A stretch of DNA of 43,605 nucleotides from an uncultured Thermoplasmata archaeon. Lineage in GTDB: Archaea > Thermoplasmatota > Thermoplasmata > GCA-020350865. Numbering within the stretch: the stretch's first letter is position 1; each line of letters starts with the position of its first letter. Shown piece by piece: positions 13,874 to 31,669 of the stretch. The stretch spans positions 1 to 43,605 of the forward strand of contig CBDVCK010000001.1 in NCBI GenBank assembly GCA_965372465.1, given 5' to 3'. The notes under the pieces are model-generated. The model was not told the origin of the DNA. It did no database searches and saw only the letters and a list, made by a program, of their open reading frames with translations. Position numbers and translations under genes: made by a program.

Positions 13874-13916
13874 GGTATTATCATTCCTTTGATTGTGGCA
13901 CTGGGGGATATATGAC

Positions 13917-16900
13917 ATGGTAAAAAGAGCATTTAAAGCTCTGATAAGTTTGACGATACTGGGTATCTTACTGTTCTCCTCATATGAGATGGTAGCGTTG
14001 AGTTTTTTAGATATTGATTTTGACGAACCACAAGAATCGGAGGTAGAGAAGGAATCTCAGGCCCCCTTGGATCCTTCTCCCATCACCTACAAAATCCGGG
14101 ATGATAAAGATTCGAATCCCCAGCAATCAAATGTTTTTCCATTGGGTGAATTTTACCCTGAAACAGAAGAGGGTGATTTATCTTACCTGAAGATCGAGCC
14201 CGAACTGCTTTATGGATTAAAGAGTGCAGATACGATGGAGGTTGTGATTACAGCAACTGACATGGCAGAAGTGCGGGAACTTCTAGGCTTCGAAAATCAG
14301 AACAATGAACTTCCAAAGAAGAAATACGAAGGACGACTCGATACAGCTGTACTTGAAGTGGAAAGCTATATGATTCCGAAGATCGCTTCCTTGAAGAGTG
14401 TGGTGAGTATACAGATATATACCCTTCCCAAACCTCCGCAATTCCCTGAGGAAACGGGTTTCGATTCAGGCTCCGAGCCAATGATGTGGAATGCTGTAAA
14501 ATATCATGGAGCAGATGAGGCCTGGACCCAGGGTTACAATGGCTCCGGTGTAAAAGTTGCTGTATTGGACACAGGTGTTGATTTCGGGCATCCTGATCTC
14601 AATGGGACCCAGGCCAGGGATGAGAATCCATCATCTCCGTATTTGGGCTGGCCTTTGGCTTTTGATTCAAGATCCATGAACAGCTTTCTTTCCTCAGGTG
14701 GTCAGGGTTTTACAGGATCAGGGGGGGAGGACAACTGGTTTTCAGATACAAGTTCCACTGATACCGATGGCGATGCAAATGATATTCTTGATTCCACAGG
14801 ATACAACGTAAGCGGAATCGTAAGCCAGAGCGGGGTATACCATTACGGTCTGCATCCAGATACGAGATTAAGGATTATTCATGGAAACTATGTTGCGGTC
14901 CTTGTCGTGGACGAAAATTCTCCTGGAGTATATGATACAGTCTATGTGGATTTGGACGACGACGATAATTTTACTGATGAAAAACCGTGCAGAAAAGGCG
15001 ACGAGGTATCATCCCATGATACAGGAGCTGACGGTATTCCGGATAGGTCTGGGGGGATGATATATTTTATTGCCGACGGTGTAAACCCTGTTCCATATTC
15101 TGATGTCATTGCAGCAGAAAATGGTTATTCATTACCTATACCAACTTCTGGTGACCTTGTAGCATTCATGATTAACGACCCAACAGAAGCAGCTGGAAAC
15201 CACGGAACACTGTGCGCCTCTGCAATTGCAGGGCAGGGTATCATCGGAGGAGGCAGGGTAAAAGGAACGGCTCCTAAAGCCGAAATCATAGCAGTAGGAA
15301 ATATTTACCAGGGAGGAAACAGCTTCGATAACTATTATTTCGCGGTAGAGGGTTATGACGGCATCCCAGGCACAGGAGACGAAGCACAGATATTAAGCTG
15401 CAGTTTCGGTGATTCAGAGGTAGTGCGGGGTGGATGGGACTTTACCTCAAGGTTCGTTGATAACCTGACAACCTACTATGCTCCCAATGTTACCTTCTCT
15501 GTGGCCAGTGGAAATGGCGGTTATGGTTACGGAACCGTGGCCTCACCAGGTTCCTCCATGGGTGTGATAACCGTTGGCGCTGCACTAAATAAACGCGAAA
15601 CCGAGGTCATGTACTGGTCGAACCGAGGACCAAACGCCGTGGGTCAGTTGGATCCTGATATTGTTTCTGTGGGAGTTGATGCATACGGTGACACGCCTCT
15701 TAATCAGGGGAATAATGGTAACAATGCATACAGGACATGGAGCGGGACAAGCCTGGCAACACCAGTTACCGCAGGTATTATCGCTCTTATCTATGATGCA
15801 TATTTTCAATCACATGGTGAGTATCCAACATCAGAGCTTGCCAGAGAGATAATAATGTCCACAGCCGACAATCTGAACTATGATCCCCTTGTTCAAGGTG
15901 CAGGTTTTTCAAATGCCACAAGAGCTACAAAGGTTGCCAACAACATCTCAGGGTTGCTACTATCCCCATCCTTCTGGACCGCAGGAGGTTATAGGGGAGT
16001 GGATTACGATGCCTTTGCGCACATCATGTTCCCGGGTGAGAGTGACAACATAACATTCTCGGTTTCAAATGCGGATCAGAACAATGCAGTGGATGTGTAT
16101 ATCTCTGATTATATACTTTCGAGAACCAATACGCACACAGTGGCAATAGAGGCAAATAAATCCAATGAGGATGGTTCCAGTAATCGCCCTGATTTTCTGA
16201 TTCCCTTATATGATTCAAAGAACAACATCTCCCATATTCCAAACGATACAGCACTTCTTAAAGTGAGTGGTTTCATGCCCTATGATGAGTTTGATCCCGA
16301 TATGAACTATTTCAAAAATAACGACTTTTCCATCACGATTTACAATTGGAAGGATAATAACGGCAATGGAAGTTACTGGAACGATACCAATGGTGATGGT
16401 ATATCCCAGACCGGGGAGATCGAATGGTCCGAGTTATCAGGGGGGGTAATTTGCTCATCCTCGATTTCAGCAACCACGGAAGAGGCCAGGATGCATGACC
16501 CACTGGATAGGGTTGATGATGGAATTATAGTTGGTGTGTTTCATGCCCCGCAAAGCGGAGCTCCGGAGATATCCCATATTTATATTCAATCCCAATGCTA
16601 CAACAGAACAGACTGGGATTGGCTTTCTGCGAACTCATCATATCTAGATGTTGATGCTGATGGAACATCAACATTCAATGCTTCCCTGACTGTTCCCCCA
16701 AACACTCCAATAGGCCTTTACGAAGGCATAATAGCAATCAACGATACTAGGAACGAAACCGCCTTGCCAGTGATTGTGAACGTTGCAGGAGACTCCCCCC
16801 AGTTCAATTTCGGGGGAAACACCATGTCAACCCAATTGTATGCCAACGATCAGGTATTTGGCGCCTTTCGATGGGGTTGGAGATATGAAGGTGGAGATTG

Positions 16901-19900
16901 GAGGTTCTACTTCATCGACATTCCGGATTCATATTCGGTTACTCCGGGAACGAAACTTATCGCGGATGTTAAATGGGATAATTACCCAACAGACATAGAT
17001 GTCTTCATTCTTGGCCAATCCTCTGATTCATTTTCCTCAGGGATGCCAGGTAGATTCGGACCCTATACACTTGGTATCAACGGAGCAAGCACCGACGAGT
17101 ACTGGTTCAACGGAATATTCAGATTCGGAACCTCAACAGGGGGAACCCAGGAGATAATATCAGCTGATCTCGGACAGGGGCTCAATGAAATAATATTACA
17201 TAATGTACTGTACGCTGGAGAGTCCTTTTCCGAGAATGCTACCGGTACACTGGGAACAGTCAATGTTACGCCCTATCCCTGGGATTTGGGATTTATTGAA
17301 GATTTCGCAAATCTAACTGCGACACAGCAATTTTCTGTTCTTTCAAGCTTCAACCTTTCAGGAATCAATGTAGAAGCCTTCGGTGTGTATCCTTCTATGG
17401 AATATCCCGACCAACTCGTCTACCAGAACGACCCAAACGACGAGACCACAGCAAACTGGTCCAAGGAATTCGATGTTTCAAATGCAGATTACATAAAAGT
17501 CAACATAGGAAGCGATGTGAGCATGGATATCGATCTCTTTCTTTTAAGAGATATAAACACCAACGGTGTTCCAAATTGGGTATCCGAGGAAGTGGCCTCC
17601 TCCACCTCTCCAAATGAGAATGAGGAAATAATTCTCAACGCTCCTCCTGATGGTAAATACTGGGTTTTTGTCCATGGCTGGAGTGTACCAGTTGATCCTT
17701 CCATTTTTGACTGCACAATCGAAGTTGTCCATGGAAATGATATAACGGTTACTGATGTACCTTCCGGTAGTATTACAGGAGGGTTACCCGCATATTTCAA
17801 TGCCTCTTGCTCCTTACCACCGATCGGGGGGAAATACAGAGGTGTTGTTACAATCGGCCTTGATGATCTATCCGATTCCATAAGTGTGCCTTTCTTAGCT
17901 GAAGTGGAAAGTGAAATCCCAATAATCTGGAACCTTCTACCAATCAATGGCTCATGGATAAATGATACCCAACCCACTATAAGCGCTCAATACAATGATT
18001 CCGGCTCTGGTGTTGATGTTTCACGGGTGTTCATCTATCTAGATGGTGTTAATCATACTACAAATGCAACGATTACAGTGAACTCAATTATCCTTATCCC
18101 TCCATTTCCTCTAACTGAAGGCAACCATACAATAGATTTGATAGTTACTGATATGTTCAGCAACCAGAATTCCACATCATGGCAGTTTTTGGTGGAGGGC
18201 GGAGGACCTGTTATTTATAATCAACAGCCAGGCAATAATACATGGGTCAATTTTGCTCAACCCGTAATCGGTGCCCAGTACTATGACCTGGGTTCCGGGA
18301 TCAATACTTCTTCTGTGTATCTCATAATTGATTGGATTAACTGGACAGCTTTTTCAACCATCACCTCCAGCTCTATTTCGTTCAATCCCGGATGGCAAAT
18401 GGCAGAAGGCGATCATAATGTATCAGTTTCTGTTGCTGATAATTGGGGATATCAGAACTTCTCCTTCTGGGAATTTTACATCGATACAGTACAACCAACA
18501 ATATCCCTGAATTCCCCAGCGAATAATTCGATTATTGCCCCGGGCCCTATTTTGAATTTCTCAATTTTGGATTTAAATCTGATTGGAGTCAATTTCTCTA
18601 TAAACAGTGGTAGTGATATCCCTCTCTCTGCTCCATACGATCTTTCCACATCAGGGTGGCCGGATGGAGATTACACTATCCAAATAAATGCAGTTGATAT
18701 TGCACAAAATTCCAATTTCTCCTGGTTTTTCTTCAACATTGATACAACCAAACCCCAAATCCTTTTGAATTCACCGGGGAATAATTCAATCGTTCAAAGC
18801 GGAACCATTTTGGACTTTGATATAATGGATCCAAACCTAGTGGAGACCAATTATTCAATCAATGGTGGGTCAGAGAATCCGTTTTTTACACCCTTTGATA
18901 TCCCCACGGCAGCATGGTTGGATGGAGATTATATAATCCAAATAAATGCAGTGGATACGGTGGGCTATTCCAATTCGGCCTGGTATTTCTTTACCATAGA
19001 TTCCACAGAGCCAGTCATCATTTTTAACGCTCCTGATAACAATACAATCATTCCTGGAGGAACCATTTTGGATTTTACCATTTCTGATCCTAATCTGTTA
19101 CAGGCCAATTTTTCACTCAATGGTGGATCCGCTGTTTCCTTTTCTTCTCCCTATAATCTATCCACATCAGGCTGGTTTGATGGGGATTACACAATCCAAA
19201 TCAATGCAATTGATATGGCAGGAAATTCTAAATCTTCATGGTTTTTCTTTACCCTTGATTCCACCAGGCCAGTCATCATTTTGAATGCTCCTTTGAACAA
19301 TTCTTTTATTCAAAGCGGGACGATTCTTGACTTTACCATTGTGGATACAGACCTTATCGAGAGCAACTACTCTATCAACGGTGGATTTGTTGCCTCCTTC
19401 TCTTCTCCTTTTAACATCGACACAACCGGATGGCTGGATGGCGATTACACAGTTCAGATCAATGCAAATGATTCGGTTGGCAATTCAAATTCTTCCTGGT
19501 TTTTCTTTACCATAGATTCCCTGAGGCCAGTCATCTCGAATTTACAGCCATCAAATGGAACAATGATCAATTCCTCTCAACCCACAATAGGTGCTCAGTA
19601 TGATGATTCGGGCTCGGGCATAGATACCTCATATGTGTTTGTTTATGTTGATGGAGTGAACCAAACAGTGAATGCCACGGTAAATCCTGATTCATTCAGC
19701 TTCATACCATCATCCTCAATATCGGAAGGGAACCACAGTGTATATTTGATAGTAACGGATCTTGCTGGGAATCAAAATTCAATAACCTGGCAGTTTATTG
19801 TGGACAGCACAAACCCCATTGCAGAGGCCGGGGAAAACATTACAGTTTTTGAGGATGAAATCATAGTTTTCGATGCAAGTGCAAGTTCGGATGAAAACGA

Positions 19901-22220
19901 AGTTTTCAACTATACATGGGATTTTGACGATGGAACTTTTGGCTATGGAGAAAGTCCATCCCATAACTACACTAAATCCGGAACATATAATGTTACACTT
20001 ACTGTATGGGATTTCGCAAATAACAAAGCGACAGATTCAATAACGGTCTTTGTGAACAATGCTCTACCCATTGCAGAGGCAGGTATCGATCAGATCGTGG
20101 ATGAGGGCGATATGGTATTTTTTGACGGTGGTGATTCATATGATTCTCCTTCTGATAAATCGAACTTGATATACACCTGGTACTTTGATGGAGGTATCGT
20201 GCTTACCGGTAGGACGGTAAGCCATGTATTTTTGGACGACGGCATATATATGGTTACATTGACGGTTGAGGATGACAACAGTGAAATTGACTCCGATACC
20301 CTGAATGTTACAGTCAATAATGTTGCACCACATGCGAATATCGGAGGACCGTATTCGGGTGAGGAAGGAAGTCCCGTTGGGTTCTTAGGTTCGGCAGTCG
20401 ATCCCGGTAATGACACATTCACCTATGAATGGGACTTTGATGAATCGGATGGTATAACATATTCGGATTTCACAGGGCAGAATCCATTGCAGACCTGGCC
20501 TGATGATTTCACTGGCACCATATATTTACGGGTAACTGATGATGATGGTGGTGTGGGTATCAATTCCACAACCGTAACCATCAACAATGTCGCCCCGGTA
20601 GCCAATGCCAGCGGTCCCTATTTTGGGAATGAGGGCATGCTAGTAAACCTCTTGGGCTCGGCTGTGGACCCGGGCACCGATATCCTAACCTATGAATGGG
20701 ACCTGGACAATGATGGACAATATGATGATTTCACAGGTGAGAATCCAGAATGGTCATGGCCTGACAATGGTGTGTATACAATAGGGTTGAAAGTTACAGA
20801 TGACGACGGTGGTGAGGGTACAAATACAACAACAGTAACAATCTATAACCTGGCACCAACAGTTTTTACAGATGAGGTATACTATGGTGATGAAGGTTCC
20901 GTTTTCAGCTTCACAGGTAACGTCACCGACTCTGGTATATCAGACACCTTTTCATATCTGTGGGATTTCGGAGATGGGCAAACAAGCACGCAAGAGTTCC
21001 CGACCCATGTTTACAATGATGATGGAGTTTACACAGTCACTCTAACTATAACGGATGATGACGGGGGTGTCGGAGCTAATTCGACAATGGCCATAGTTTA
21101 CAATACTCCCCCAACAATTGAGGAATTTGACGGTAATATCACAATTGTAGAAGATGTGCCTTTCATACTTGTAATAAATGCCTCAGATGCTACAGGTGAT
21201 GAGATAACTTTCGAGGATGACTCGCAATTGTTTGATATCGGTAGCAATAGTGGTAGAATCCAATTCACCCCAACCAACAACGATATCGGGATATACGCAG
21301 TTACAATTACTGTCCGCGATGATGATGGAGGTACCACCACCCTAATTCTGTTAATTGAGGTTCTGAATGCAAATGACCCTCCGGTGCTCGAAGAAATCGG
21401 TGATCAGACTGCAACAGAGGATTCCCAATATACCTACACTGTTTTGGCAAATGATGTGGATATTCTTGACACTTTAACATTCTCTGATGATTCGTCGCTT
21501 TTTGATATCGACCATGATACCGGTGTGATCTCCTTTACTCCGGTAAACGAACAAGTGGGAGTGTATCTGGTTACCATCACGGTGACAGATTCTGAAGGCG
21601 CCCAAGATTCCGAAGAGGTTACATTTTCTGTTATTAATACAAACGATGCCCCTGTTTTAAACAGCATCCCCAATCAAGAAGCCGTGGTGGGTGAAAGATT
21701 CAACCTAAGAGTGACTGCAATTGATTTGGATAATGACCTGCTATCATTTTCTGATGATTCGGAATTATTCATTACTTTTCCATCCACAGGCAATATTTCG
21801 TTTATACCGAGAAAAAATGATGTTGGCATTTACACGATAAACATAACAGTATCTGACGGGCACGGCGGGCGAAACTCGCAAACAATGACCCTGGAAATCG
21901 TGGATGCCCCTGAATCGGATGAAAGTCCCGAATGGCTTTCATTACTGTACCCTTTCATACTGATAATGGTGGTTGCCATTATTCTTCTATTGATATTGTT
22001 GATGTACTTAAAAAGAAAAAGAGAAGATGAGGGACAACATGAACCTCCACCCCCACCTGATGATACTCTTCTTGAATCACAACATGGACCTCCACCCCCG
22101 CCTGACGATAATCCTCTTGAACCCAGAGAACCACCATTATCCCAAGAAACAATACAACCTCAAGAGCAAAATGAGGTTCCACCTCCACCTCCTCCGCCAC
22201 CACCAGACATAATAGAATAA
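13917..22220 (+). CDS. Giant membrane-anchored S8 subtilisin-like serine protease with Ig-like, PKD and cadherin-like (He_PIG-type) modules, a C-terminal TM helix and a polyproline tail
   Basis: Catalytic triad motifs: VAVLDTGVD (Asp codon 14568-14570), HGTLCASAIAG (His 15201-15203) and SGTSLATPVTAG (Ser 15750-15752). Downstream modules: a CopC/Big-like module x3; an 86-aa repeat x4; PKD-like units (e.g. YTWDFDDGTFGYGESPSHNYTKSGTYNVTLTVWD), about 6 copies; and NDAP/NDPP-led cadherin-like units x3. The TM helix is LLYPFILIMVVAIILLLILLMYL. The tail has PPPPP, PPPPP and P9 tracts. The track start 13893 is TTG. I prefer ATG 13917 (MVKRAFKALISLTILGILLF signal/anchor). Confidence 0.9.
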   Translation: MVKRAFKALISLTILGILLFSSYEMVALSFLDIDFDEPQESEVEKESQAPLDPSPITYKIRDDKDSNPQQSNVFPLGEFYPETEEGDLSYLKIEPELLYGLKSADTMEVVITATDMAEVRELLGFENQNNELPKKKYEGRLDTAVLEVESYMIPKIASLKSVVSIQIYTLPKPPQFPEETGFDSGSEPMMWNAVKYHGADEAWTQGYNGSGVKVAVLDTGVDFGHPDLNGTQARDENPSSPYLGWPLAFDSRSMNSFLSSGGQGFTGSGGEDNWFSDTSSTDTDGDANDILDSTGYNVSGIVSQSGVYHYGLHPDTRLRIIHGNYVAVLVVDENSPGVYDTVYVDLDDDDNFTDEKPCRKGDEVSSHDTGADGIPDRSGGMIYFIADGVNPVPYSDVIAAENGYSLPIPTSGDLVAFMINDPTEAAGNHGTLCASAIAGQGIIGGGRVKGTAPKAEIIAVGNIYQGGNSFDNYYFAVEGYDGIPGTGDEAQILSCSFGDSEVVRGGWDFTSRFVDNLTTYYAPNVTFSVASGNGGYGYGTVASPGSSMGVITVGAALNKRETEVMYWSNRGPNAVGQLDPDIVSVGVDAYGDTPLNQGNNGNNAYRTWSGTSLATPVTAGIIALIYDAYFQSHGEYPTSELAREIIMSTADNLNYDPLVQGAGFSNATRATKVANNISGLLLSPSFWTAGGYRGVDYDAFAHIMFPGESDNITFSVSNADQNNAVDVYISDYILSRTNTHTVAIEANKSNEDGSSNRPDFLIPLYDSKNNISHIPNDTALLKVSGFMPYDEFDPDMNYFKNNDFSITIYNWKDNNGNGSYWNDTNGDGISQTGEIEWSELSGGVICSSSISATTEEARMHDPLDRVDDGIIVGVFHAPQSGAPEISHIYIQSQCYNRTDWDWLSANSSYLDVDADGTSTFNASLTVPPNTPIGLYEGIIAINDTRNETALPVIVNVAGDSPQFNFGGNTMSTQLYANDQVFGAFRWGWRYEGGDWRFYFIDIPDSYSVTPGTKLIADVKWDNYPTDIDVFILGQSSDSFSSGMPGRFGPYTLGINGASTDEYWFNGIFRFGTSTGGTQEIISADLGQGLNEIILHNVLYAGESFSENATGTLGTVNVTPYPWDLGFIEDFANLTATQQFSVLSSFNLSGINVEAFGVYPSMEYPDQLVYQNDPNDETTANWSKEFDVSNADYIKVNIGSDVSMDIDLFLLRDINTNGVPNWVSEEVASSTSPNENEEIILNAPPDGKYWVFVHGWSVPVDPSIFDCTIEVVHGNDITVTDVPSGSITGGLPAYFNASCSLPPIGGKYRGVVTIGLDDLSDSISVPFLAEVESEIPIIWNLLPINGSWINDTQPTISAQYNDSGSGVDVSRVFIYLDGVNHTTNATITVNSIILIPPFPLTEGNHTIDLIVTDMFSNQNSTSWQFLVEGGGPVIYNQQPGNNTWVNFAQPVIGAQYYDLGSGINTSSVYLIIDWINWTAFSTITSSSISFNPGWQMAEGDHNVSVSVADNWGYQNFSFWEFYIDTVQPTISLNSPANNSIIAPGPILNFSILDLNLIGVNFSINSGSDIPLSAPYDLSTSGWPDGDYTIQINAVDIAQNSNFSWFFFNIDTTKPQILLNSPGNNSIVQSGTILDFDIMDPNLVETNYSINGGSENPFFTPFDIPTAAWLDGDYIIQINAVDTVGYSNSAWYFFTIDSTEPVIIFNAPDNNTIIPGGTILDFTISDPNLLQANFSLNGGSAVSFSSPYNLSTSGWFDGDYTIQINAIDMAGNSKSSWFFFTLDSTRPVIILNAPLNNSFIQSGTILDFTIVDTDLIESNYSINGGFVASFSSPFNIDTTGWLDGDYTVQINANDSVGNSNSSWFFFTIDSLRPVISNLQPSNGTMINSSQPTIGAQYDDSGSGIDTSYVFVYVDGVNQTVNATVNPDSFSFIPSSSISEGNHSVYLIVTDLAGNQNSITWQFIVDSTNPIAEAGENITVFEDEIIVFDASASSDENEVFNYTWDFDDGTFGYGESPSHNYTKSGTYNVTLTVWDFANNKATDSITVFVNNALPIAEAGIDQIVDEGDMVFFDGGDSYDSPSDKSNLIYTWYFDGGIVLTGRTVSHVFLDDGIYMVTLTVEDDNSEIDSDTLNVTVNNVAPHANIGGPYSGEEGSPVGFLGSAVDPGNDTFTYEWDFDESDGITYSDFTGQNPLQTWPDDFTGTIYLRVTDDDGGVGINSTTVTINNVAPVANASGPYFGNEGMLVNLLGSAVDPGTDILTYEWDLDNDGQYDDFTGENPEWSWPDNGVYTIGLKVTDDDGGEGTNTTTVTIYNLAPTVFTDEVYYGDEGSVFSFTGNVTDSGISDTFSYLWDFGDGQTSTQEFPTHVYNDDGVYTVTLTITDDDGGVGANSTMAIVYNTPPTIEEFDGNITIVEDVPFILVINASDATGDEITFEDDSQLFDIGSNSGRIQFTPTNNDIGIYAVTITVRDDDGGTTTLILLIEVLNANDPPVLEEIGDQTATEDSQYTYTVLANDVDILDTLTFSDDSSLFDIDHDTGVISFTPVNEQVGVYLVTITVTDSEGAQDSEEVTFSVINTNDAPVLNSIPNQEAVVGERFNLRVTAIDLDNDLLSFSDDSELFITFPSTGNISFIPRKNDVGIYTINITVSDGHGGRNSQTMTLEIVDAPESDESPEWLSLLYPFILIMVVAIILLLILLMYLKRKREDEGQHEPPPPPDDTLLESQHGPPPPPDDNPLEPREPPLSQETIQPQEQNEVPPPPPPPPPDIIE
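18481..19512 (+). repeat. Four tandem coding repeats with an exact 258-nt period (86-aa Ig-like module)
   Basis: Units start at 18481 (IDTVQPTISLNSP), 18739 (IDTTKPQILLNSP), 18997 (IDSTEPVIIFNAP) and 19255 (LDSTRPVIILNAP). The next module begins at 19513. DNA-level similarity is visible, e.g. ggagattacactatccaaataaatgcagttgat versus ggagattatataatccaaataaatgcagtggat. Confidence 0.85.
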
Positions 22221-23015: not shown

Positions 23016-24926
23016 ATGGGTATCGTAAGATTAGGTAAACTGGCGCTGAGATGGTGCAATGACTGCAACCTGCCGGTTCTTGAATCCAAAGCATGCGGTA
23101 TATGCCAGAATGAGACAGCTCAGGTAAAACTCACACCCCCTGGTGATGTGAGACCTGCATTTGATGTGGATCTTGCCCTCATCCGCGATACCCTTGATTC
23201 CCAATTCGGAGCAGGTTGCGGTGATATACTTATTCCCGAGGATAAAATCGTGATTTTGAACAAGGCCCCATCCCAGGACAGGATGGATGAAATCATTTTA
23301 GACGGTCGTGTTCTGGGGACACTGCGCTATGATATTGGTGAAGGATACAAGATCATTTTGAGAATGCATGCAGCACAGCAGATCGAATCAAATATATCGA
23401 GGAACTGGGTGATGGTGGATCCCGGAGCTGTCACCCCAATTGAAAAAGGTGCAAACGCACTTGCGGTTGGCGTTGTAAAGATATATCCGGATATTGCCAA
23501 GGGAAACGAGGTTGTGGTTCTGAGTGAGGATAAAAAGGCATTGGCAATTGGAAAGGCCAGTATGGACGGTGAAGATATCATCGGAAACAGAGGCGTTGCA
23601 ATTAAAACCAGATGGTACGGAAGGGAAGTTTACCAATCTTTACCTTCAGGCCAGACCTGGGATGATGCAATTTCAGCGAATTTATGGTTCTTTGAGAAAA
23701 AGGTGAGCAAGGCAATTAAATTCATCAAAAAGGTTTCAAGTGAGCAGGAAAACGAGGTCGTGGTTTCATTTTCCGGAGGAAAAGACAGCCTTGCAACTCT
23801 CCTTCTTGCCTTGGATGCCGGTCTCAAACCCAAGGTGCTGTATGTTGATACGGGCCTTGAGTTTGCTGAAACAAATACCCATGTTAACGAGGTAGCCCAG
23901 AAATACGGCCTGGAAGTTGTCAAGGGGGATGCCAAGGATGCATTCTGGGAGAACGTTGCGAATTTTGGACCGCCAGGCAAGGACTTCAGGTGGTGCTGCA
24001 AGACCTGCAAACTTGGTCCCACTGTTAAGCTAATCAAAAAACACTTTCCCAAAGGAGTCGTGTCTTTAATCGGTCAGAGGGCATATGAATCAGAGCAAAG
24101 GGCGAGAAAGGGTGCAATCTGGAGGAACCCGTGGGTTCCGGGTCAGCTCGGTGTGTCACCTATCCAGGACTGGACTGCCCTGCACATATGGCTCTATATT
24201 TTCGAAAAAGATGCTCCCTACAATGTCTGGTACGAGCGGGGGCTGGAGCGAATCGGATGCTGGCTCTGTCCTTCCTCAGATGTTGCTGATTTGGATGTGG
24301 TAAAAAAACATTATCCAGACTATGAAAGATGGGAGCGAATTTTAAAGGATTATGCAGAGAAAATGGGCTATTCAAAAGAATGGCGAAAGTTCGGATTGTG
24401 GAGGTGGAGAAAGCCTCCCAAAGGAGTGATGGATTATATTGATCAGAAGGGTATATCCTTGAAAGATGAAGAGGAAAAACCCCGAATTGAAAGTTCCGGA
24501 AAATTCGAATTCTTCTCTGCCGAAGGTTATCAACCCTGCGAGGGTGGAATGAGCATTGAAGGGGTATTCAGTAGAAGACTGGATATGAAAAGAGCAGCAA
24601 ACCTCCTGAACATCCTAAGTGAAGTTACCTATGACGATAAAACAGATTCATGCTCTTTTTCTGATGTGGATGTATTTGGCGAGGGGGGGATGGTGGTAAG
24701 AGGCAGGGATGAAAAAAAGACAAAAAAACTCATGAACAAGGTTAAGGACACGATAATACGAGCACATCTATGCATAGGATGCGGGATATGCACGGGAAGA
24801 TGCGATTCTGGTGCACTTGAAGTGGATGAGCAGGTGTGTGTGGATGAGGAGAAATGCATTCACTGCGAGGAGTGTCTGGGGCCTTGTCCGGTAATAGGTT
24901 ACGGGGATAGGGAGTTCGAATTTTAG
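23016..24926 (+). CDS. Zn-ribbon/PUA-like + PP-loop (PAPS reductase family) + 2x[4Fe-4S] ferredoxin multidomain protein
   Basis: Elements in order: an N-terminal CNDC-x9-CGIC; a PUA-like segment (WVMVDPGAVTPIEKGANALAVGVVKIYPDIAKGNEVVVLSEDKKALAIGKA); the PP-loop VVSFSGGKDS (about 23768-23790); and a C-terminal CIGCGICTGRC plus CIHCEECLGPCP. Confidence 0.8.
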   Translation: MGIVRLGKLALRWCNDCNLPVLESKACGICQNETAQVKLTPPGDVRPAFDVDLALIRDTLDSQFGAGCGDILIPEDKIVILNKAPSQDRMDEIILDGRVLGTLRYDIGEGYKIILRMHAAQQIESNISRNWVMVDPGAVTPIEKGANALAVGVVKIYPDIAKGNEVVVLSEDKKALAIGKASMDGEDIIGNRGVAIKTRWYGREVYQSLPSGQTWDDAISANLWFFEKKVSKAIKFIKKVSSEQENEVVVSFSGGKDSLATLLLALDAGLKPKVLYVDTGLEFAETNTHVNEVAQKYGLEVVKGDAKDAFWENVANFGPPGKDFRWCCKTCKLGPTVKLIKKHFPKGVVSLIGQRAYESEQRARKGAIWRNPWVPGQLGVSPIQDWTALHIWLYIFEKDAPYNVWYERGLERIGCWLCPSSDVADLDVVKKHYPDYERWERILKDYAEKMGYSKEWRKFGLWRWRKPPKGVMDYIDQKGISLKDEEEKPRIESSGKFEFFSAEGYQPCEGGMSIEGVFSRRLDMKRAANLLNILSEVTYDDKTDSCSFSDVDVFGEGGMVVRGRDEKKTKKLMNKVKDTIIRAHLCIGCGICTGRCDSGALEVDEQVCVDEEKCIHCEECLGPCPVIGYGDREFEF

Positions 24927-24967: not shown

Positions 24968-27900
24968 TTAGGTACCCGCACTATAACCACAGTGAGGGCA
25001 TTGGATCGAAGTTGCAGATAATGGACTTTCAAATGAATTTTGGCACTGCGGGCATTTGAGAGTTTGCATTTCAATTGGAACTGCGGTTTCCGTGGTTTCT
25101 GTCACTTCTAAAGAAGCAACTTGTGCACCACTCTTTTTTCCTCCCCTACTCCCTACTGCTGCTAAAATGACGATAACCAATACAACAATTACAATCAATA
25201 CAATATATAAAATCCAATCTGTGGTCTCCTCTTCTCCTGCATCTCCTGATTTGGCCGGGTCCAGAGGGTATTTATCATCAATATCAAGGACTCCATCATC
25301 GTCGTCGTCTTCATCTACTTCAAGACCTGTGGTTGAATCATTTTCATCATATCCTACATTCCAATCATCAGGCTTGCCGTCGTCATCAGTATCTATACTT
25401 GCTGCAGGATCCAAAGGAAAATCATCTTCATCATCGTCGAATCCATCATCATCATCGTCATCATCCGCATTGTCACCGGTTCCATCCTCGTCAGTATCCC
25501 TCCATTCATCGGGATCTTCCGAAAAGGCATCAATATCATCCAAGTACCCGTCATTATCATCATCCGTATCTTCGGAATCAGGTATACCATCTCCATCCGA
25601 ATCAGAAAACACTTCCAGCGTGAAATCCGTTAAATCACTCCCGCCATTACCATCGGAAACCGATACCTCAACCCAGTAAGAGCCTATACCATTGCTGCCA
25701 GGCGTTCCCGAAAGAATACCTGAGGAGCTTTCAATGCTCAACCAGCTCGCATTTGTTTCCAAGTCCCAGCTCAGAATGTCATCTAAATCATTATCTGTGG
25801 CTTCATAATCAACACTGTATAAAACATTCTCATATGCCGAATCGATATCGTCGGTAACAATTACGGGGGCATTATTTTGACTCAAGACTATAATAGTGAA
25901 ATCTGTGAAGTCACTTCCACCATTTCCATCCGAAACCGAGACATTGACCCGGTAAGTGCCCACATCGAATTCATCAGGAGTTCCCGAAAGAACACCTGTG
26001 GAGCTATGGATACCCAACCAGCTTGCATTTGTATCCACATCCCAGCTCAATATATCCTGATCATCATCTGATGCTTCATAATCGATATTGTATAGCTCAT
26101 CCTCATTTGCAGTATTTACATTGCTGATTGTGATTATAGGAGCGTCATTTGTGTTTACAACAGTTAGCGTGAAGTTGGAAAAGTCAATTCCATTATTACC
26201 ATCCGAAACTGACACATTGACAGTCCAGGTTCCTACATCGCTGTTATTAGGAGTACCTGAGAGGTTACCTGAAACTGAATCGATAGAAAACCATGCATCT
26301 GCATCTGTCCATAAGCTCCATGTTAATGGATCTCCGTCAAGATCATCTGCATCATAATCGGTAGAATATTGTGAGTCCTCATAGGCTGTGGTGTTATCGG
26401 GTGTTGTGATGGTTGGTATATTGTTCGGGAGGCTTAGATTGTATATATATGCTGAGCCCTGCTCATCTTCACCACTGATATTATCCCGGTTAGCCCCTAT
26501 TATAAAAGTATCATAACTGATAGAAACAGAAAATCCAAAATAGTCCCCCGCCTCACCATCCGAGGCTGTTATCATATCAACCATACCCCAGTTGTTATTA
26601 CCACCCTGGTTACGGTAATAAATATACACCGAACCTTGATCTACATTTACATCGATATCATCCACACATGCACCAATAATTATCGTATCACGATTAATTG
26701 AAACGGAATTTCCAAAATAGTCCCCAAATTCACCATCTATTGGCGAGAGCTTGGCAACTACTCCCCAGTTATCTATACCCCCTTCATCACGTTCGAAAAT
26801 ATATGCAGAACCTATAAAATTATCTTGTTCCGATCCTACTATAAGTGTATCTTTACTAACCGAAACGGAATTTCCAAAATTATCAAGCTCTCCTCCATCA
26901 GATGCTGTAACCTTAATAACTAGACCCCAATTGTCTGATCCTCCTTGATTACGTTCAAAGATACATACAGAACCCTGATTTGTATTTATTCCGATATCAT
27001 CACAGTAAACTCCAACGGCAAGCGTATCATTACTTATGGAAACGGAATTACCCAATTGATCATTCCCTAAACCGTCCAAAATGGTTAGCTTTGTAACCTC
27101 GCCCCAATTATCTGGACCTCCTTGGTTGCGTTCATAGATATACGCAGAACCTTGATCGACCTGTCCACCGATATCATCACGAGGTGAACCAACCACTAAT
27201 GTATCACCATCAATGGAAACAGCGCTTCCGAAATAATCCTCGTTCAATCCGTCTGAAGCTAAAACTTTTACAATCTCACCCCAATTATTTGGTCCCCCTT
27301 GGTTGCGTTCAAAGATATACACTGCTCCTTGAGAATATGTCACTCCACTATCCTCATAAGATGCTCCAACAGCTATCGTATCCCCTGAAAAATAAACTGC
27401 CTCACCAAAGTGGTCTCCCGCTTCACCATCCGAGCTTGTTAGCTTAACAACCATCCCCCAATTGTCAAGACCTCCTTGATTGCGTTCGAAGATATAAGCT
27501 GAACCTTGATTATTGTTTGCACCAACATCATCAAAGCGCGCTCCAACGACAACAGTATCACCATTAATGGAAACAGACTGGCCGAAGTTGTCACCAGCAG
27601 CGCCGTCAGAGGCAGTGAGCTTTGCAATCTCAGTTGCTAAAAGAGGGTCTATTGTGAGGGGGTATACAGCATTAGTATCATTTACTGAGATTGTGATGCT
27701 ATCCGAAAATATACAAAGCGCGGACGGGATAATGTGCCCATATGCATCTGTAACTATTAACTTTCCATAATTAAGAACAATCCTTCCAGAATCATCCAGA
27801 AATGCAATGTTTTCCCCCTCGTTAATGGTCTTTGATGTGAGAGTGGTTTGAAGGTTCATCTCGAATAAAAGATTCCCGGTTGTTATGGGTTGCGGCGGTG

Positions 27901-28426
27901 CGTTTATCGTGAACCCGTGCTCAAGTCCTTTTTCGTCATTGACGTACCAGCCAGTCAGATCTTTATTGTACACAAATTCAATACTGTTTTCATTCACTAC
28001 AACTTCAGGATCATCATTTATGGGAACTATGTTTCCTCTGTAACCATAACCTGCAGGAGTAAGAAGCCAGGACCAGTCCTTTCCCGAACTCGGATTGACC
28101 AAAACCGCTCCATCATCATATGTAATTCCCCATTGATGCCGAGGATTCGAGGCCATATATCCTTGGGCAGTCTGACTCCAGGTGGGATAGTACCTAGATT
28201 CCTGTAGTCGAACCTGTATATCGTCCCATTCAATAGCGGAAAGACCTTCTGGAATCTCTGATATCGTATGTTCTTCATATTCGCTTAGGGCCTCACTTTC
28301 CGGGTCAATTTCTAGATTTGAACCTACATGGGATACCTCTAAAAGAACAATCGAAAAACAACCTATTATCATTGTCACTGATGTCACTAAAGCCATTAGC
28401 TTCGCATTACTCACCCTATTCCACAT
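24968..28426 (-). CDS. Integrin-alpha-like surface protein: seven FG-GAP repeats, three cadherin-like (He_PIG-type) modules, an Asp-rich calcium-binding repeat region, a TM helix and a cytoplasmic zinc-ribbon tail
   Basis: Seven units of the form (L/V/I)T(A/S)SDG..GD.FG.SVSI..DT..VG...D......QGSAYIFERNQGG..NWG lie at about 26440-27630. Three NxNDAP/NNAP-led modules lie at about 25620-26420. DxDxDG-type Asp runs (DSDGDGIPDSEDTDDDNDGY, DTDEDGTGDNADDDDDDDG, DTDDDGKPDD) lie at about 25255-25610. The TM helix is WILYIVLIVIVVLVIVILAAVG. The terminal motif is CPQC-x14-CPHC. I prefer the start at ATG 28426 (MWNRVSNAKLMALVTSV) with GGGGGA upstream, because the TATA-like element at about 28461-28480 is too close to ATG 28456. 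Confidence 0.85.
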   Translation of the reverse strand: MWNRVSNAKLMALVTSVTMIIGCFSIVLLEVSHVGSNLEIDPESEALSEYEEHTISEIPEGLSAIEWDDIQVRLQESRYYPTWSQTAQGYMASNPRHQWGITYDDGAVLVNPSSGKDWSWLLTPAGYGYRGNIVPINDDPEVVVNENSIEFVYNKDLTGWYVNDEKGLEHGFTINAPPQPITTGNLLFEMNLQTTLTSKTINEGENIAFLDDSGRIVLNYGKLIVTDAYGHIIPSALCIFSDSITISVNDTNAVYPLTIDPLLATEIAKLTASDGAAGDNFGQSVSINGDTVVVGARFDDVGANNNQGSAYIFERNQGGLDNWGMVVKLTSSDGEAGDHFGEAVYFSGDTIAVGASYEDSGVTYSQGAVYIFERNQGGPNNWGEIVKVLASDGLNEDYFGSAVSIDGDTLVVGSPRDDIGGQVDQGSAYIYERNQGGPDNWGEVTKLTILDGLGNDQLGNSVSISNDTLAVGVYCDDIGINTNQGSVCIFERNQGGSDNWGLVIKVTASDGGELDNFGNSVSVSKDTLIVGSEQDNFIGSAYIFERDEGGIDNWGVVAKLSPIDGEFGDYFGNSVSINRDTIIIGACVDDIDVNVDQGSVYIYYRNQGGNNNWGMVDMITASDGEAGDYFGFSVSISYDTFIIGANRDNISGEDEQGSAYIYNLSLPNNIPTITTPDNTTAYEDSQYSTDYDADDLDGDPLTWSLWTDADAWFSIDSVSGNLSGTPNNSDVGTWTVNVSVSDGNNGIDFSNFTLTVVNTNDAPIITISNVNTANEDELYNIDYEASDDDQDILSWDVDTNASWLGIHSSTGVLSGTPDEFDVGTYRVNVSVSDGNGGSDFTDFTIIVLSQNNAPVIVTDDIDSAYENVLYSVDYEATDNDLDDILSWDLETNASWLSIESSSGILSGTPGSNGIGSYWVEVSVSDGNGGSDLTDFTLEVFSDSDGDGIPDSEDTDDDNDGYLDDIDAFSEDPDEWRDTDEDGTGDNADDDDDDDGFDDDEDDFPLDPAASIDTDDDGKPDDWNVGYDENDSTTGLEVDEDDDDDGVLDIDDKYPLDPAKSGDAGEEETTDWILYIVLIVIVVLVIVILAAVGSRGGKKSGAQVASLEVTETTETAVPIEMQTLKCPQCQNSFESPLSATSIQCPHCGYSAGT

Positions 28427-28554
28427 TTGAATTCCCCCATTGAACTGTAAAAGCATACATTATTTATATAATTAAGTATAAAAAAGGGCCTTATTCCGTA
28501 ATCAGTCAATGGGACAGGGAGTTTGAGTTTTGATATATTGTATTTAATGTTCCA

Positions 28555-28986
28555 CTAAAAATGAGATAATGTAGTATCAGCTCTACATTCATCCAATCCC
28601 AACTCACTAACATCCTGAATGTATGCAAAGCTCTGGGGAGCCTTAAACTCGTCATTATTCTTTTTAGGATCAATTGGCGGGTCGAATCGTTCCACTTCTT
28701 CTACTTCGAATCCATATCCCTTTGATCTATCCCCAAAGTACGAGAAAAACCTTTCTTCTTCTATTCCTCCTTGTGCTCCGCATTTCTCCCATATTTCTTC
28801 TGGAGTACCCTTAATAACATTTCGAATCCGGAATTTCCCCACAATCATCTTCTCAGGATAAGAAGAATAGATAAAAACCTGATGAACCTGTTTAAGAGGG
28901 ATCTGTTTTCTGAATTCAAATCGTTTAAATCCGATTAGAATCTTTTCGGCATATTCGGGTTTTATAGACAGGATTATGTCAACCAT
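28555..28986 (-). CDS. ASCH domain (PUA-like fold) protein
   Basis: MVDIILSIKPEYAEKILIGFKRFEFRKQ...VFIYSSYPEKMIVGKFRIRNVI matches the ASCH N-terminal strand/helix pattern known from archaeal stand-alone ASCH proteins. I place the start at ATG 28986 (143 aa). It overlaps the upstream stop within ATGGTTGA (an 8-nt overlap at 28979-28986), implying translational coupling. Confidence 0.75.
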   Translation of the reverse strand: MVDIILSIKPEYAEKILIGFKRFEFRKQIPLKQVHQVFIYSSYPEKMIVGKFRIRNVIKGTPEEIWEKCGAQGGIEEERFFSYFGDRSKGYGFEVEEVERFDPPIDPKKNNDEFKAPQSFAYIQDVSELGLDECRADTTLSHF

Positions 28987-30442
28987 CCTTTGACTCCCTC
29001 CGAATATTCTGATAGGATATATCATCAATTGTTACTATACTTTGTGGCGGGTGTTTGAATACATTCAGCTTTCTGAGTTTTTCACTAGGAACATAAGAAG
29101 GAAGTTGTCCAATGTATCTAAACAATATTGCCAGGGCACCTCTTTCATATAAAATTTGTAATTCATCTGGTGAATAAACAGATCTTGGTCCAATAAAGGC
29201 AATAAGCTCATCAAGTGAAGAGGGGTGCCTCATTGTTGATTCAACTACGCCGATTCCAGTGATACCCTGTTTTTTCTTCGAACGGTAGAATAAAAGTATG
29301 TCCCCTGCATTTATCTTTGTAATTTTTGAATTACAAATATATGCTTTTTTTATTGTATTTTGTTCGATTACCATTTCCTTATATTCATCCAGTAGAGTTT
29401 GACGCAATGGAACATCTGGAAACAACCTATCGTGATATTCCGGTCTTATTGGAATCATGAATTTGTTGACATGATCTCCATCGTAGAAATTGGGAAAAAA
29501 TTTTTTACAATAATCGAGAGGACGCATTTCACCCAAAGATGCGGGTGCCATGAAATCTTTAGCATAAATTAATTCCCCTTCTGGGCTTTCATCGATTTGT
29601 ATAAACCCGAAATCTTCCAATAATATCCTTAAATATTCTTTCTTGGGATAAGTAGTTAAATATGTTGTTGATAGATTATTTTTTACACAGTATTTAAAAG
29701 TCATCTTCAGCAGTAATTCTCCAACCTTCAAACCTCTGACATTTTCTGATACTTTGAACGTGCAAATTTTAAGCACTTTTTCTTTAGATTCTCTAAATAT
29801 TTGTTTATCTTTTTCAGTATAAATCAATAATGCTCTTAACTCTCCACCTTCCCCCCGCCAACTCCAACACATTCTCCCTTCCTTTCCTTTGCTTACAAAC
29901 CAATCATCAAATCCAGGGTAATTTTCTCTAAGACTATCGAAAAAATCCGATTTAAGATCCAAATTATGAATGGGAATATTTTCTAAGAGAATATGCCCTG
30001 GAATATATCTTTCGAACTGTCTCTTCAAATATAATAAAGCCTGGGATACTGAAAGCACCCTATCCCCTATACCTAATTTTCCAGCTTTTCTATGAATCCC
30101 AAAATCCTCGGTAATAAGGAAGTTGGCTGCATTTTTAAAGATAGAATATAATATCTTGTTATCCACTTCATCCTGGGGTCTTGATACCCCTCCCACAGCT
30201 TCAGTAAAGGACCCATCAGGCTTGGCAGTATCTTCAAGAACAGGGTATTTCTCAAATTTTGACCTATGTATTTTTTTCCTCATCATATCTGTATCTCTAC
30301 TTAAATCCTCAAGAGACGCTGGATGAACCATAATTGTAATATGATGTTTTATGGCTAATGATAGGAGTTCTGCAACTTCAGATTCGATTATTTTATTAGA
30401 TTCGCTTTGAATAAAAACGTTTGTATCAATGAGGACCCGCAA
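28979..30442 (-). CDS. PIN nuclease + GNAT-like acetyltransferase + C-terminal PUA-like (ASCH/EVE-type) fusion protein
   Basis: 487 aa. TTG start at 30442 with AAGGTGG 5 nt upstream. The N-terminus MRVLIDTNVFI plus FLITEDFGIHRKA are PIN-type acidic motifs. The middle has FDSLRENYPGFDDWF and VRGLKVGELLLKMTFKYC, which resemble GNAT motif A. The C-terminus has KFMIPIRPEYHDRLF and INAGDILLFYRSKKKQGITGIGVVES, which resemble the ASCH/EVE core and the start of the neighbouring ASCH protein (SIKPEYAEKI). Confidence 0.7.
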   Translation of the reverse strand: MRVLIDTNVFIQSESNKIIESEVAELLSLAIKHHITIMVHPASLEDLSRDTDMMRKKIHRSKFEKYPVLEDTAKPDGSFTEAVGGVSRPQDEVDNKILYSIFKNAANFLITEDFGIHRKAGKLGIGDRVLSVSQALLYLKRQFERYIPGHILLENIPIHNLDLKSDFFDSLRENYPGFDDWFVSKGKEGRMCWSWRGEGGELRALLIYTEKDKQIFRESKEKVLKICTFKVSENVRGLKVGELLLKMTFKYCVKNNLSTTYLTTYPKKEYLRILLEDFGFIQIDESPEGELIYAKDFMAPASLGEMRPLDYCKKFFPNFYDGDHVNKFMIPIRPEYHDRLFPDVPLRQTLLDEYKEMVIEQNTIKKAYICNSKITKINAGDILLFYRSKKKQGITGIGVVESTMRHPSSLDELIAFIGPRSVYSPDELQILYERGALAILFRYIGQLPSYVPSEKLRKLNVFKHPPQSIVTIDDISYQNIRRESKDG

Positions 30443-30483
30443 TTTACCACCTTACATTCATTAAATCCTTTATAACAACAGGT

Positions 30484-30727: not shown

Positions 30728-31669
30728 GTGAGCTATCTAGAAGTAATCGAGAGAAATGGAAAAGAGTACTACTATGTGACCAAGAATTTCCGTGTCGGTC
30801 CCAATAAATGGAAAAAGGTAAGAAAATATCTTGGAAGGGAAAAGCCCGATAAAAAAACCTTGGAATCAACGATTAAAGCACTTGAATTGGAAGCAAAGAA
30901 TCGTGGGATGTTTATTAAATCAAAATTCGCATACTTGGACGAAACGGATGCTGAGAAACTCGAGGATGTCCATAATGCCTTCAGGAAGTGGTTCGGAAAA
31001 CTTCGAATAGAAGATAGAGAGTCATACCAATCCGATTTTCTCATTCGATTCACATACAATACAAATGCAATAGAAGGCAATCGTCTGAGCCTGCGGGAAA
31101 CAGCAATGATTTTTAACGAGGGTATAATCCCAGAAGGTGCATCTATCAATGATTTCAATGAGGCATTAAACTCCCGAGACGTGTTCGGATACATTAAAGA
31201 ATACAAGGGGGAGCTGAACAAGCGCTTCCTTCTCAAGCTTCATAAGGAGGTGGCCAAAAATACAAAATGCCGGATCATTGGAGCTTACCGTGATTCCGAG
31301 GTGAGGATAAGCGGTTCGGACTGGGTTCCGCCTCCTGCAGAAGAACTGCCGGATAGGATGAAGAAGTTCTTTCAATGGTATAACAACCATAAAAACAGGT
31401 TGCATCCAGTAGAGCTCGGAGCTTTAGCGCATGTAAAGCTGGTTCAAATTCATCCATTTACAGATGGAAATGGTCGTGTTGCACGGGTTGTGATGAACTG
31501 GATACTTCTTAAGAAAGGTTATCCCATGTTTTATATTGAGACCAAAAAGAAAATCCATTACTATAATGCTTTGGAAGCTGAGGACAAGGATGAATTAAGT
31601 GTGTATATCAAGTACATTGCGAACACAATTATTAAGCAATTTACCTTCACAAGCAAGGATAAAAAATAG
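30728..31669 (+). CDS. Fic family protein (AMPylase-type) with an intramolecular inhibitory motif
   Basis: The Fic active-site motif HPFTDGNGRVARVVMNW (31451-31501) fits HxFx(D/E)GNGRxxR. The upstream motif TNAIEGN (31061-31081) fits the (S/T)xxxE(G/N) inhibitory helix. GTG start; no in-frame ATG lies nearby. Confidence 0.88.
   Translation: MSYLEVIERNGKEYYYVTKNFRVGPNKWKKVRKYLGREKPDKKTLESTIKALELEAKNRGMFIKSKFAYLDETDAEKLEDVHNAFRKWFGKLRIEDRESYQSDFLIRFTYNTNAIEGNRLSLRETAMIFNEGIIPEGASINDFNEALNSRDVFGYIKEYKGELNKRFLLKLHKEVAKNTKCRIIGAYRDSEVRISGSDWVPPPAEELPDRMKKFFQWYNNHKNRLHPVELGALAHVKLVQIHPFTDGNGRVARVVMNWILLKKGYPMFYIETKKKIHYYNALEAEDKDELSVYIKYIANTIIKQFTFTSKDKK

Follow-up and report, generated by a model that had tools for sequence, protein, structure and literature searches.

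What kind of system is formed by two overlapping genes of an uncultured Thermoplasmata archaeon, one encoding a protein with PIN, GNAT-like, and PUA-like domains and the other a small ASCH protein? The genes, designated here A and B, lie on the minus strand of contig CBDVCK010000001.1, in an analysed stretch of 43,605 nucleotides (nt) referred to below as the window (coordinates are collected in Table 1). A preliminary description of this DNA presented the pair as a candidate undescribed toxin or nucleic-acid-modification-sensing module. According to our analysis, it is an archaeal member of a described module, and with a probability of roughly 0.6 it represents an accessory, horizontally mobile defence module of the toxin-antitoxin (TA)-like or abortive-infection kind.

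Protein A matched the PADLOC profile PDC-M11A (PDLC04421) with an E-value of 2.6e-137, its residues 1-481 aligning with positions 1-481 of the 486 in the profile. Protein B, the product of the adjoining gene, matched PDC-M11B (PDLC04424) over its full length (E-value 2.2e-45). These matches assign the pair to PDC-M11, the PADLOC entry for the (PIN)-GNAT-EVE plus ASCH module, as one of its archaeal members. The 145 PDC candidates were obtained by 'guilt-by-embedding', from genes located within BREX, DISARM, and type I restriction-modification (R-M) systems (10.1101/2024.01.29.577857). In common with PDC-M11, both window proteins match the hidden Markov models full length and their genes are adjacent on one strand, but the pair is found outside type I R-M, BREX, and DISARM systems, and the PDC-M11 set also includes variants of A without the PIN domain. 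Operons of this type were noted first by Iyer et al. (2013), as cited in PMC7641849 and PMC5499597. Matelska et al. (2017) described PIN_15/PIN_17 proteins of PIN-GNAT-PUA composition together with a second PUA/ASCH gene (PMC5499597), and Bell, Wolf, and Koonin (2020) described (PIN)-GNAT-EVE plus ASCH operons, their association with type I R-M, and an ASCH-HsdS fusion (PMC7641849). The window pair has the identical domain order and the second PUA-like (ASCH) gene, and like those operons its family occurs in archaea and bacteria; it differs in having neither an AAA_17 ATPase nor a fusion of ASCH with a helix-turn-helix (HTH) domain. Hence the architecture is not undescribed, as had been supposed, and a phage relative is even annotated GevT/GevA. 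The accompanying statement that no system with this architecture has been characterised holds for the literature searched. What the window adds is one archaeal member, whose small subclade is marked by a shorter A tail; it is a candidate for experiments and not a new architecture.

The motifs on which the preliminary description relied (MRVLIDTNVF, ITEDFGIHRKA, VRGLKVGELLLK, IPIRPEYHDRLF, and SIKPEYAEKIL) were all found in the sequence, and its division of A into PIN, GNAT-like, and PUA-like parts was correct according to Pfam, the AlphaFold2 (AF2) model, and Foldseek. Pfam placed PIN_3 on residues 2-114 (E-value 1.6e-6) and Acetyltransf_1 on residues 167-280 (1.6e-4), both above the gathering score, and EVE on residues 374-411 (2.2e-4), just under it. 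Among 40 members of the A family, these domains were matched in 18, 18, and 17 proteins, respectively. The AF2 model of A, built with a 40-sequence alignment as input, had a mean predicted local distance difference test (pLDDT) score of 88.4, and strands and helices alternated in its PIN region. Residues D6, T7, N8, E14, D94, and D113 were invariant in this alignment, and D50 was conserved in at least 90% of the homologues. As D6, E14, D94, and D113 do not vary, the PIN metal site appears intact by sequence; the acidic set of the predicted nuclease site, which the preliminary description had proposed to check, is fully conserved. Typically, the PIN fold is that of an RNase. No DNase domain (HNH, PD-(D/E)xK, GIY-YIG, or PLD) fused to A was detected by Pfam or Foldseek. 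A does not show the combination of a PUA-like reader with a DNase that marks type IV modification-dependent restriction, its fused nuclease being PIN.

For the central domain, a Foldseek search of the PDB retrieved NatD, PaiA, Ard1, Naa50, and the GNAT toxin 7BYY, with a probability of 1.00 for NatD, PaiA, Ard1, and 7BYY; the fold search of BFVD gave generic (viral) GNAT matches only. Thus, of the acetyltransferase core proposed earlier the GNAT fold stood, but the A family does not conserve the canonical Q/R-x-x-G-x-G/A of motif A, the acetyl-CoA pyrophosphate loop. Its place, the beta4-alpha3 loop, reads RGLKVGELLLK in A. The family consensus is G237-x-[KR]239-x-G241-E242, in which G237 and E242 are invariant and K239 and G241 are conserved in at least 90% of the 40 sequences. 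The same degeneracy of motif A was reported by Matelska et al. (2017), who considered the acetyltransferase activity probably lost (PMC5499597).

The C-terminal domain of A resembled the neighbouring protein B, as had been suggested from their common first strand. Its best Foldseek matches were structures of the ASCH protein ZmASCH (5GUQ and 5Y6B, TM-score 0.77-0.81 on the target), and the EVE domain of THYN1 (5J3E) was matched likewise. Alignment with the B family by hhalign was collinear over the full domain, with IxPEY, [IF]Y[SR]S, and PPQS in common, at weak scores (E-value 0.0016-0.03, probability 2-6%). With profile-profile scores this weak, homology of the two could not be taken as proven from sequence alone. 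The collinear alignment with common motifs, together with the fact that ZmASCH, a homologue of B, is the top structural match, supports the view that this domain is a divergent paralogue of B. It retains F385-Y386 and P-Q467-S; the region equivalent to the GxKxxExR octapeptide of ASCH proteins reads GNTIKKAY, with an invariant Y368. Since the octapeptide is missing, the PUA-like domain of A looks like a non-hydrolytic reader.

In B, Pfam recognized ASCH on residues 6-75 (E-value 2.5e-5), as it did in 20 of 25 homologues. G19, K21, E24, and R26 of the octapeptide were invariant in these 25 proteins, as were Y40, W66, P117-Q118-S119, and Y122. Judged by its residues, B is a 'live' ASCH protein in which GxKxxExR is intact. 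Its closest relative that has been both solved and assayed is ZmASCH (ZMO0922; PDB 5GUQ, 5GUS, 5Y6B, and 5Y6C), which also has the GKER octapeptide and to which the B-family profile aligned over the full length (5GUQ, E-value 4.4e-27). Mutations of Y47, K53, and S128 of ZmASCH alter nucleic-acid binding and cleavage of single-stranded RNA (ssRNA) (PMC5615036). In the profile alignment, these residues correspond to Y40, K46, and S119, so that B is predicted to keep the nucleic-acid-binding residues mutated in ZmASCH. The latter was reported as a Mg-dependent ssRNA ribonuclease in vitro (PMC5615036) and, unlike B, has no PDC-M11A neighbour. B is not of the YqfB type, which is defined by GK[T/S]R and a length of about 103-110 amino acids, whereas B has Glu at the third conserved position and 143 amino acids, and no YqfB structure was found among the PDB matches of the B-family profile. 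A single-sequence AF2 model of B was poor (pLDDT 52.7) and was not used.

The octapeptide also bears on the question of what B might do. In a 2026 preprint, N4-acetylcytidine (ac4C) was removed from tRNA by 19 of the 19 ASCH proteins assayed, and the reaction required two residues of the GKER octapeptide, Lys and Glu (10.64898/2026.02.27.708502). By analogy, retention of the octapeptide gives indirect support to the idea that B could be an 'eraser', and the deacetylation by GKER proteins makes the old proposal of nucleic-acid acetylation for these operons directly testable. According to such a scheme, the GNAT domain of A would acetylate a base (for example, cytosine at N4, in tRNA, other RNA, or DNA), the PUA-like domain would read the mark, PIN would process either a guide RNA or the RNA that bears the mark, and B would erase the mark. 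The outcome could be an enzymatic TA system in the style of DarT/DarG or an epigenetic self/non-self mark complementing type I R-M. We consider this unlikely. The fusion of GNAT to a PUA-like reader and its pairing with B, an ASCH protein in which the K21/E24 dyad is retained, fit it, as does the removal of tRNA ac4C by GKER proteins. The strong conservation of the GNAT beta4-alpha3 loop argues for its functional importance; however, that loop is not a canonical motif A, Matelska et al. inferred a probable loss of activity (PMC5499597), and E242 is replaced by Q in the phage protein GevT. Fusions of B with HsdS (see below) suggest an action on DNA beside the methyltransferase complex, and Iyer et al. 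(2013) originally proposed nucleic-acid acetylation, according to PMC7641849 and PMC5499597. Yet an acetylated product is known for no member of the family, and the deacetylase result comes from a preprint in which no PDC-M11B protein in its operon context was included. Still somewhat less probable is a related version, a writer/eraser TA system on nucleobases in which the atypical GNAT domain would N-acylate a base (for example, N4 of cytosine in tRNA or DNA), the dead ASCH domain of A would read the mark and license PIN cleavage, and the live site of B would erase it. If true, it would represent the first case of immunity based on acyl-nucleobase chemistry, with DarTG as its conceptual parallel; in versions embedded in R-M operons, with B fused to HsdS, type I restriction would gain an acyl-based self/non-self mark or a layer of guarding.

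A word-indexed search with A returned 813 relatives at an E-value of 1e-5 or below, and an exhaustive search returned 609 clusters (50% identity) at 1e-30 or below, nearly all of 480-515 amino acids and aligned end-to-end. Full-length homologues were 37-69% identical. In a set of one genome per species, covering 185,579 species, 183 loci with A were found; the neighbourhood, overlap, and R-M counts below refer to the best 80 of these 183 loci. They were mostly archaeal (Methanosarcinales, Methanoperedens, Methanomicrobia, Thermoplasmata, Asgard, DPANN, and Bathyarchaeia), with further loci from Chloroflexi, Syntrophia, and Omnitrophota. In 76 of them, B directly followed A on the same strand; of the other four, two lay at contig ends, one had a truncated A, and in one B was inverted. 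The proposed survey of co-conservation came out in favour of the pair, and with 609 clusters matching A and B following it so regularly, the two cannot be chance open reading frames (ORFs). A almost never occurs without B, and B-like proteins also occur alone. Were A the dangerous one of the two, such an asymmetry would be expected: A needs B, while B can stand alone. ZmASCH is a B-like protein of the solitary kind: it matched PDC-M11B (E-value 3e-29), yet adjoins no A homologue. It was therefore not accepted as a member of the A-B operon type, its 375-amino-acid upstream neighbour having no PADLOC or hhalign similarity to A. This neighbour (Zymomonas mobilis, L081:4825-5952, plus strand; L numbers designate the loci compared here) lies 48 nt 5' of the ZmASCH gene on the same strand, has no Pfam or PADLOC match, and may be an unrecognised partner of ZmASCH.

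At every locus with both gene ends readable, A and B overlapped. The overlap was 23 nt in 70 of the 76 loci, with the ATG of B 20 nt before the stop of A, and 10 or 1 nt in the rest. In the 23-nt type, a GGTGG Shine-Dalgarno sequence lies inside the stretch encoding the GGIDERF tail of A, and the TAA stop of A is formed from the Ile-Lys codons of B (...TCAATTAAACC). The same 23-nt overlap was present in a prophage (psiM100 ORFD/ORF5, L084:4957-4979) and in the phage pair GevT/GevA (L083:4112-4134). Among loci L003-L080, L024:7456-7482 is an example; conservation of such dual coding across domains of life is unusual. The window copy forms a small subclade with L001 and L002 (62-69% identity), in which the A tail is shorter, lacking the C-terminal GGIDERFTVH, and the overlap is 8-10 nt. 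In the window, ATG at 28986 opens B (MVDIILSIKPEY...) and TGA at 28981-28979 closes A (...SKDG*). The stop-start overlap noticed in the preliminary description was thus confirmed at 8 nt, and translational coupling of the two same-strand genes is very likely. Sharing orientation and overlapping, they are evidently co-transcribed.

Type I R-M genes accompanied a considerable part of the family: HsdM or HsdR was encoded at most 6 kb from the pair in 25 of the 80 loci (about 30%). The usual order, on one strand, was HsdR-(COG2865-like)-(PDC-S02 PD-(D/E)xK)-A-B-HsdS-HsdM. In five loci of Methanosarcinaceae, B was fused to the N-terminus of HsdS, giving proteins of 609-681 amino acids directly 3' of the PIN-GNAT-EVE gene. 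Both the R-M association and the ASCH-HsdS fusion of Bell et al. (2020) were reproduced in this survey, and the five fusions extend the single Methanohalophilus case given there. In two loci, B was fused to a further GNAT-PUA protein. Additional PIN-less GNAT-PUA/ASCH proteins, fused to B or encoded beside A-B, bring some loci to two GNAT and three PUA-like domains. 'Extra B' ORFs, which single-linkage clustering had suggested to be ASCH paralogues, were by hmmsearch mostly HsdS proteins joined through the ASCH-HsdS fusions, and few were genuine GNAT-ASCH proteins.

According to tblastn, the family is present on 33 plasmids, chiefly rhizobial megaplasmids and haloarchaeal plasmids. Phage-borne homologues were found in psiM100 and lambdoid phages. 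The Methanothermobacter prophage psiM100 (L084, 3501-5346) encodes a full-length PIN-GNAT-EVE protein, ORFD (35% identity), with an ASCH partner, ORF5. A segment annotated as 'inserted fragment IFa', with 125-bp repeats on either side, contains most of ORFD, and the annotation of ORF5 notes its similarity to ORF5 of phage psiM2. In lambdoid phages of E. coli, a PIN-less pair occupies the interval from cI to kil; this is the rexAB position, a classic site of prophage defence genes. One such PIN-less pair, in Escherichia phage PhiR47_2 (PV340567.1; L083, 3061-4489), is annotated as toxin GevT and antitoxin GevA. GevT matched residues 160-448 of A (29% identity, E-value 1e-25) and PDC-M11A (2e-133); GevA matched B (42% identity, 8e-34, with the motif GxKRFEFR in both) and PDC-M11B (7e-52). 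The overlap of these two genes, 23 nt, is the one seen at most archaeal loci. The difference lies in GevT, which has 357 amino acids and no PIN domain, and in the phage-borne location.

The same distribution could be explained by a plain addiction cassette without a role in virus defence, in which PIN or an aminoacyl-tRNA-directed GNAT would be the toxin and B a binding antitoxin, presence in R-M systems, plasmids, and prophages reflecting only selfish stabilisation of mobile DNA. The tight coupling of the pair, the near absence of A without B, its occurrence on megaplasmids and prophages, and the GevT/GevA annotation of a relative speak for this explanation. So does the setting in the window, a chromosomal site that lies apart from defence genes and shows synteny with a relative, and PIN and GNAT are both established toxin folds (see also PMC7641849). 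The toxin-first order and an ASCH 'antitoxin' without a ribbon-helix-helix (RHH), AbrB, or HTH domain would nevertheless be atypical. The fusion of B with HsdS, and the placement of the pair between hsdR and hsdS/hsdM on their strand, point to functional integration with R-M and not to mere hitch-hiking, and the cI-kil slot in lambdoid phages is the rexAB prophage-defence position. We therefore find an addiction role without defence doubtful.

The flanks of the pair are housekeeping genes, encoding a phosphoribosyl pyrophosphate (PRPP) synthetase, an AlaX-like protein, a fusion of PUA with a 3'-phosphoadenosine 5'-phosphosulfate (PAPS) reductase, MscS, AsnC, and Trm1. The guanine-plus-cytosine (GC) content of the cassette was 0.34-0.37, compared with 0.40-0.45 in the flanks. 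The PAPS-reductase fusion, 70% identical, adjoins the pair also in the closest relative, L001, and the pair therefore occupies the same chromosomal locus in this Thermoplasmata lineage. This synteny and the tRNA-related neighbours (Trm1, the AlaX-like protein, and the PUA/TGT_C2-PAPS reductase fusion) would suit a housekeeping role in RNA metabolism, with the pair maintaining or turning over a tRNA or rRNA modification such as ac4C in translation quality control. ASCH proteins do strip ac4C from tRNA, and ac4C is abundant in archaea (10.64898/2026.02.27.708502). Against such a role stand the very patchy distribution (183 loci across 185,579 species genomes), the presence of the pair on plasmids, in phages, and inside R-M operons, the GC dip of the cassette, and the PIN nuclease with its intact site, which is not expected in a modification-turnover enzyme. 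We regard it as very improbable.

Presence on 33 plasmids and in phages, the patchy distribution, and the GC dip are the grounds for regarding A-B as a mobile cassette. In the defence module that we favour, A would be the effector, with PIN cleaving RNA once activated or released. Its non-catalytic PUA-like domain would read a modified, possibly N-acylated, base and so target or gate the nuclease, and the GNAT-like domain would install the acyl mark or merely bind or sense acyl-CoA. B would keep A harmless by hydrolysing the mark (by analogy with the ASCH proteins acting on ac4C), by competing for the ligand, or by binding A directly; in the versions embedded in R-M operons, it might connect the module with the HsdS/HsdM complex. 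Some features are known from other systems. With VapBC and TacAT/AtaRT/KacAT, the pair has in common the PIN acidic site and the GNAT fold of A and a tightly coupled bicistron. It differs from them in combining PIN, GNAT, and PUA-like domains in one chain, with a degenerate motif A, and in having the small gene downstream and no RHH, AbrB, or HTH antitoxin. The upstream antitoxin typical of VapBC, with a DNA-binding domain of the RHH, AbrB, HTH, or PHD type, has no counterpart here: no small ORF was found upstream of A, where a divergent Fic gene is located, and ASCH is downstream. Two likenesses are functional analogies. As in PrrC/EcoprrI, many family members place an RNase-type effector between hsd genes, and as in DarT/DarG, a hydrolase-type site, that of B, could reverse a nucleic-acid modification. 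The window pair has no sequence relationship to either and no R-M system beside it.

Several points weigh against a defence module. In the window, no R-M or recognised defence system was found near the pair, Fic being the sole defence-type neighbour, and the locus shared with L001 points to stable vertical inheritance here and not to recent mobility. Unlike the antitoxins of classical type II TA systems, B follows the presumed toxin and carries no domain for DNA binding. A 'writer' activity of A is doubtful because of the degenerate GNAT motif A, and since ZmASCH was reported as an ssRNA ribonuclease (PMC5615036), B might be a nuclease and not a neutraliser. The PDC systems are presented as untested candidates (10.1101/2024.01.29.577857), and according to Bell et al. 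(2020) none of these modules has been characterised experimentally (PMC7641849). In the literature searched, we found no experimental study of a PIN-bearing member and no paper behind the GevT/GevA label, which is the depositor's annotation. The family is nonetheless widespread in archaea, bacteria, plasmids, and phages and occurs within R-M operons, and no published mechanism was found for it.

Table 1. Coordinates of the A-B pair, its surroundings in the window, and fused or additional proteins at other loci
Feature	Position	Strand	Description and basis
Gene A	28979..30442	-	487-aa PIN / GNAT-like / PUA-like (EVE/ASCH-type) fusion; PADLOC PDC-M11A; TTG start
Gene B	28555..28986	-	143-aa stand-alone ASCH protein, GKER subgroup; PADLOC PDC-M11B
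PIN domain of A	30008..30442	-	about residues 1-145; PIN_3 match, invariant columns, AF2
GNAT-fold domain of A	29543..29995	-	about residues 150-300; Acetyltransf_1 and Foldseek
C-terminal PUA-like domain of A	28982..29491	-	about residues 318-487; Foldseek, EVE, hhalign
ASCH octapeptide GFKRFEFR of B	28909..28932	-	G19, K21, E24, R26; homologue alignment
A/B overlap ATGGTTGA	28979..28986	-	8 nt; sequence reading
Shine-Dalgarno-like GGTGGT	30446..30451	-	3 nt 5' of the TTG start of A; sequence reading
A/T-rich AAAAATATATATAA	30483..30496	-	candidate archaeal TATA-like box, 41-54 nt 5' of the start of A
Fic/DOC gene	30728-31669	+	HPFTDGNGR; Pfam Fic, E-value 2.8e-23; divergent from A
636-aa fusion	23016-24926	+	TGT_C2, PUA, PAPS-reductase, and 4Fe-4S domains
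1162-aa FG-GAP/He_PIG repeat surface protein	24968-28456	-	directly 3' of B, same strand
2775-aa ORF	13893-22220	+	very large ORF near the pair
B-HsdS fusions	L012:7451-9424, L045:7445-9274, L046:7448-9451, L075:7454-9481, L079:7454-9499
Extra PIN-less GNAT-PUA/ASCH proteins	L050:2348-4048, L067:7505-9202, L055:5676-6935, L035:4119-5867 (-), L038:3942-5816 (-)

The TTG start of A is supported because all homologues open with MR[VI]LIDTN and the Shine-Dalgarno-like sequence lies immediately upstream. For B, an alternative longer form with a TTG start at 29028 appears in the ORF listing, and the 143-amino-acid form is supported since homologues start at the position equivalent to the ATG. The candidate TATA-like sequence falls within the 285-nt divergent intergenic region between A and the Fic gene; a scan for bacterial sigma-70 promoters and terminators gave background level only and was uninformative. 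The Fic protein matched the PADLOC profiles PDC-S04 (E-value 1e-34) and SoFic (2e-31). It was rejected as a conserved third component, as a Fic homologue was near A in 2 of the 80 other loci (L029 and L076). Fic and A-B together make up a small low-GC islet amid housekeeping genes. The 636-amino-acid fusion is probably a tRNA-modification enzyme. The surface protein encoded 3' of B combines a transmembrane helix and a Cys-rich C-terminal tail with an Asp-rich region that is extremely acidic.

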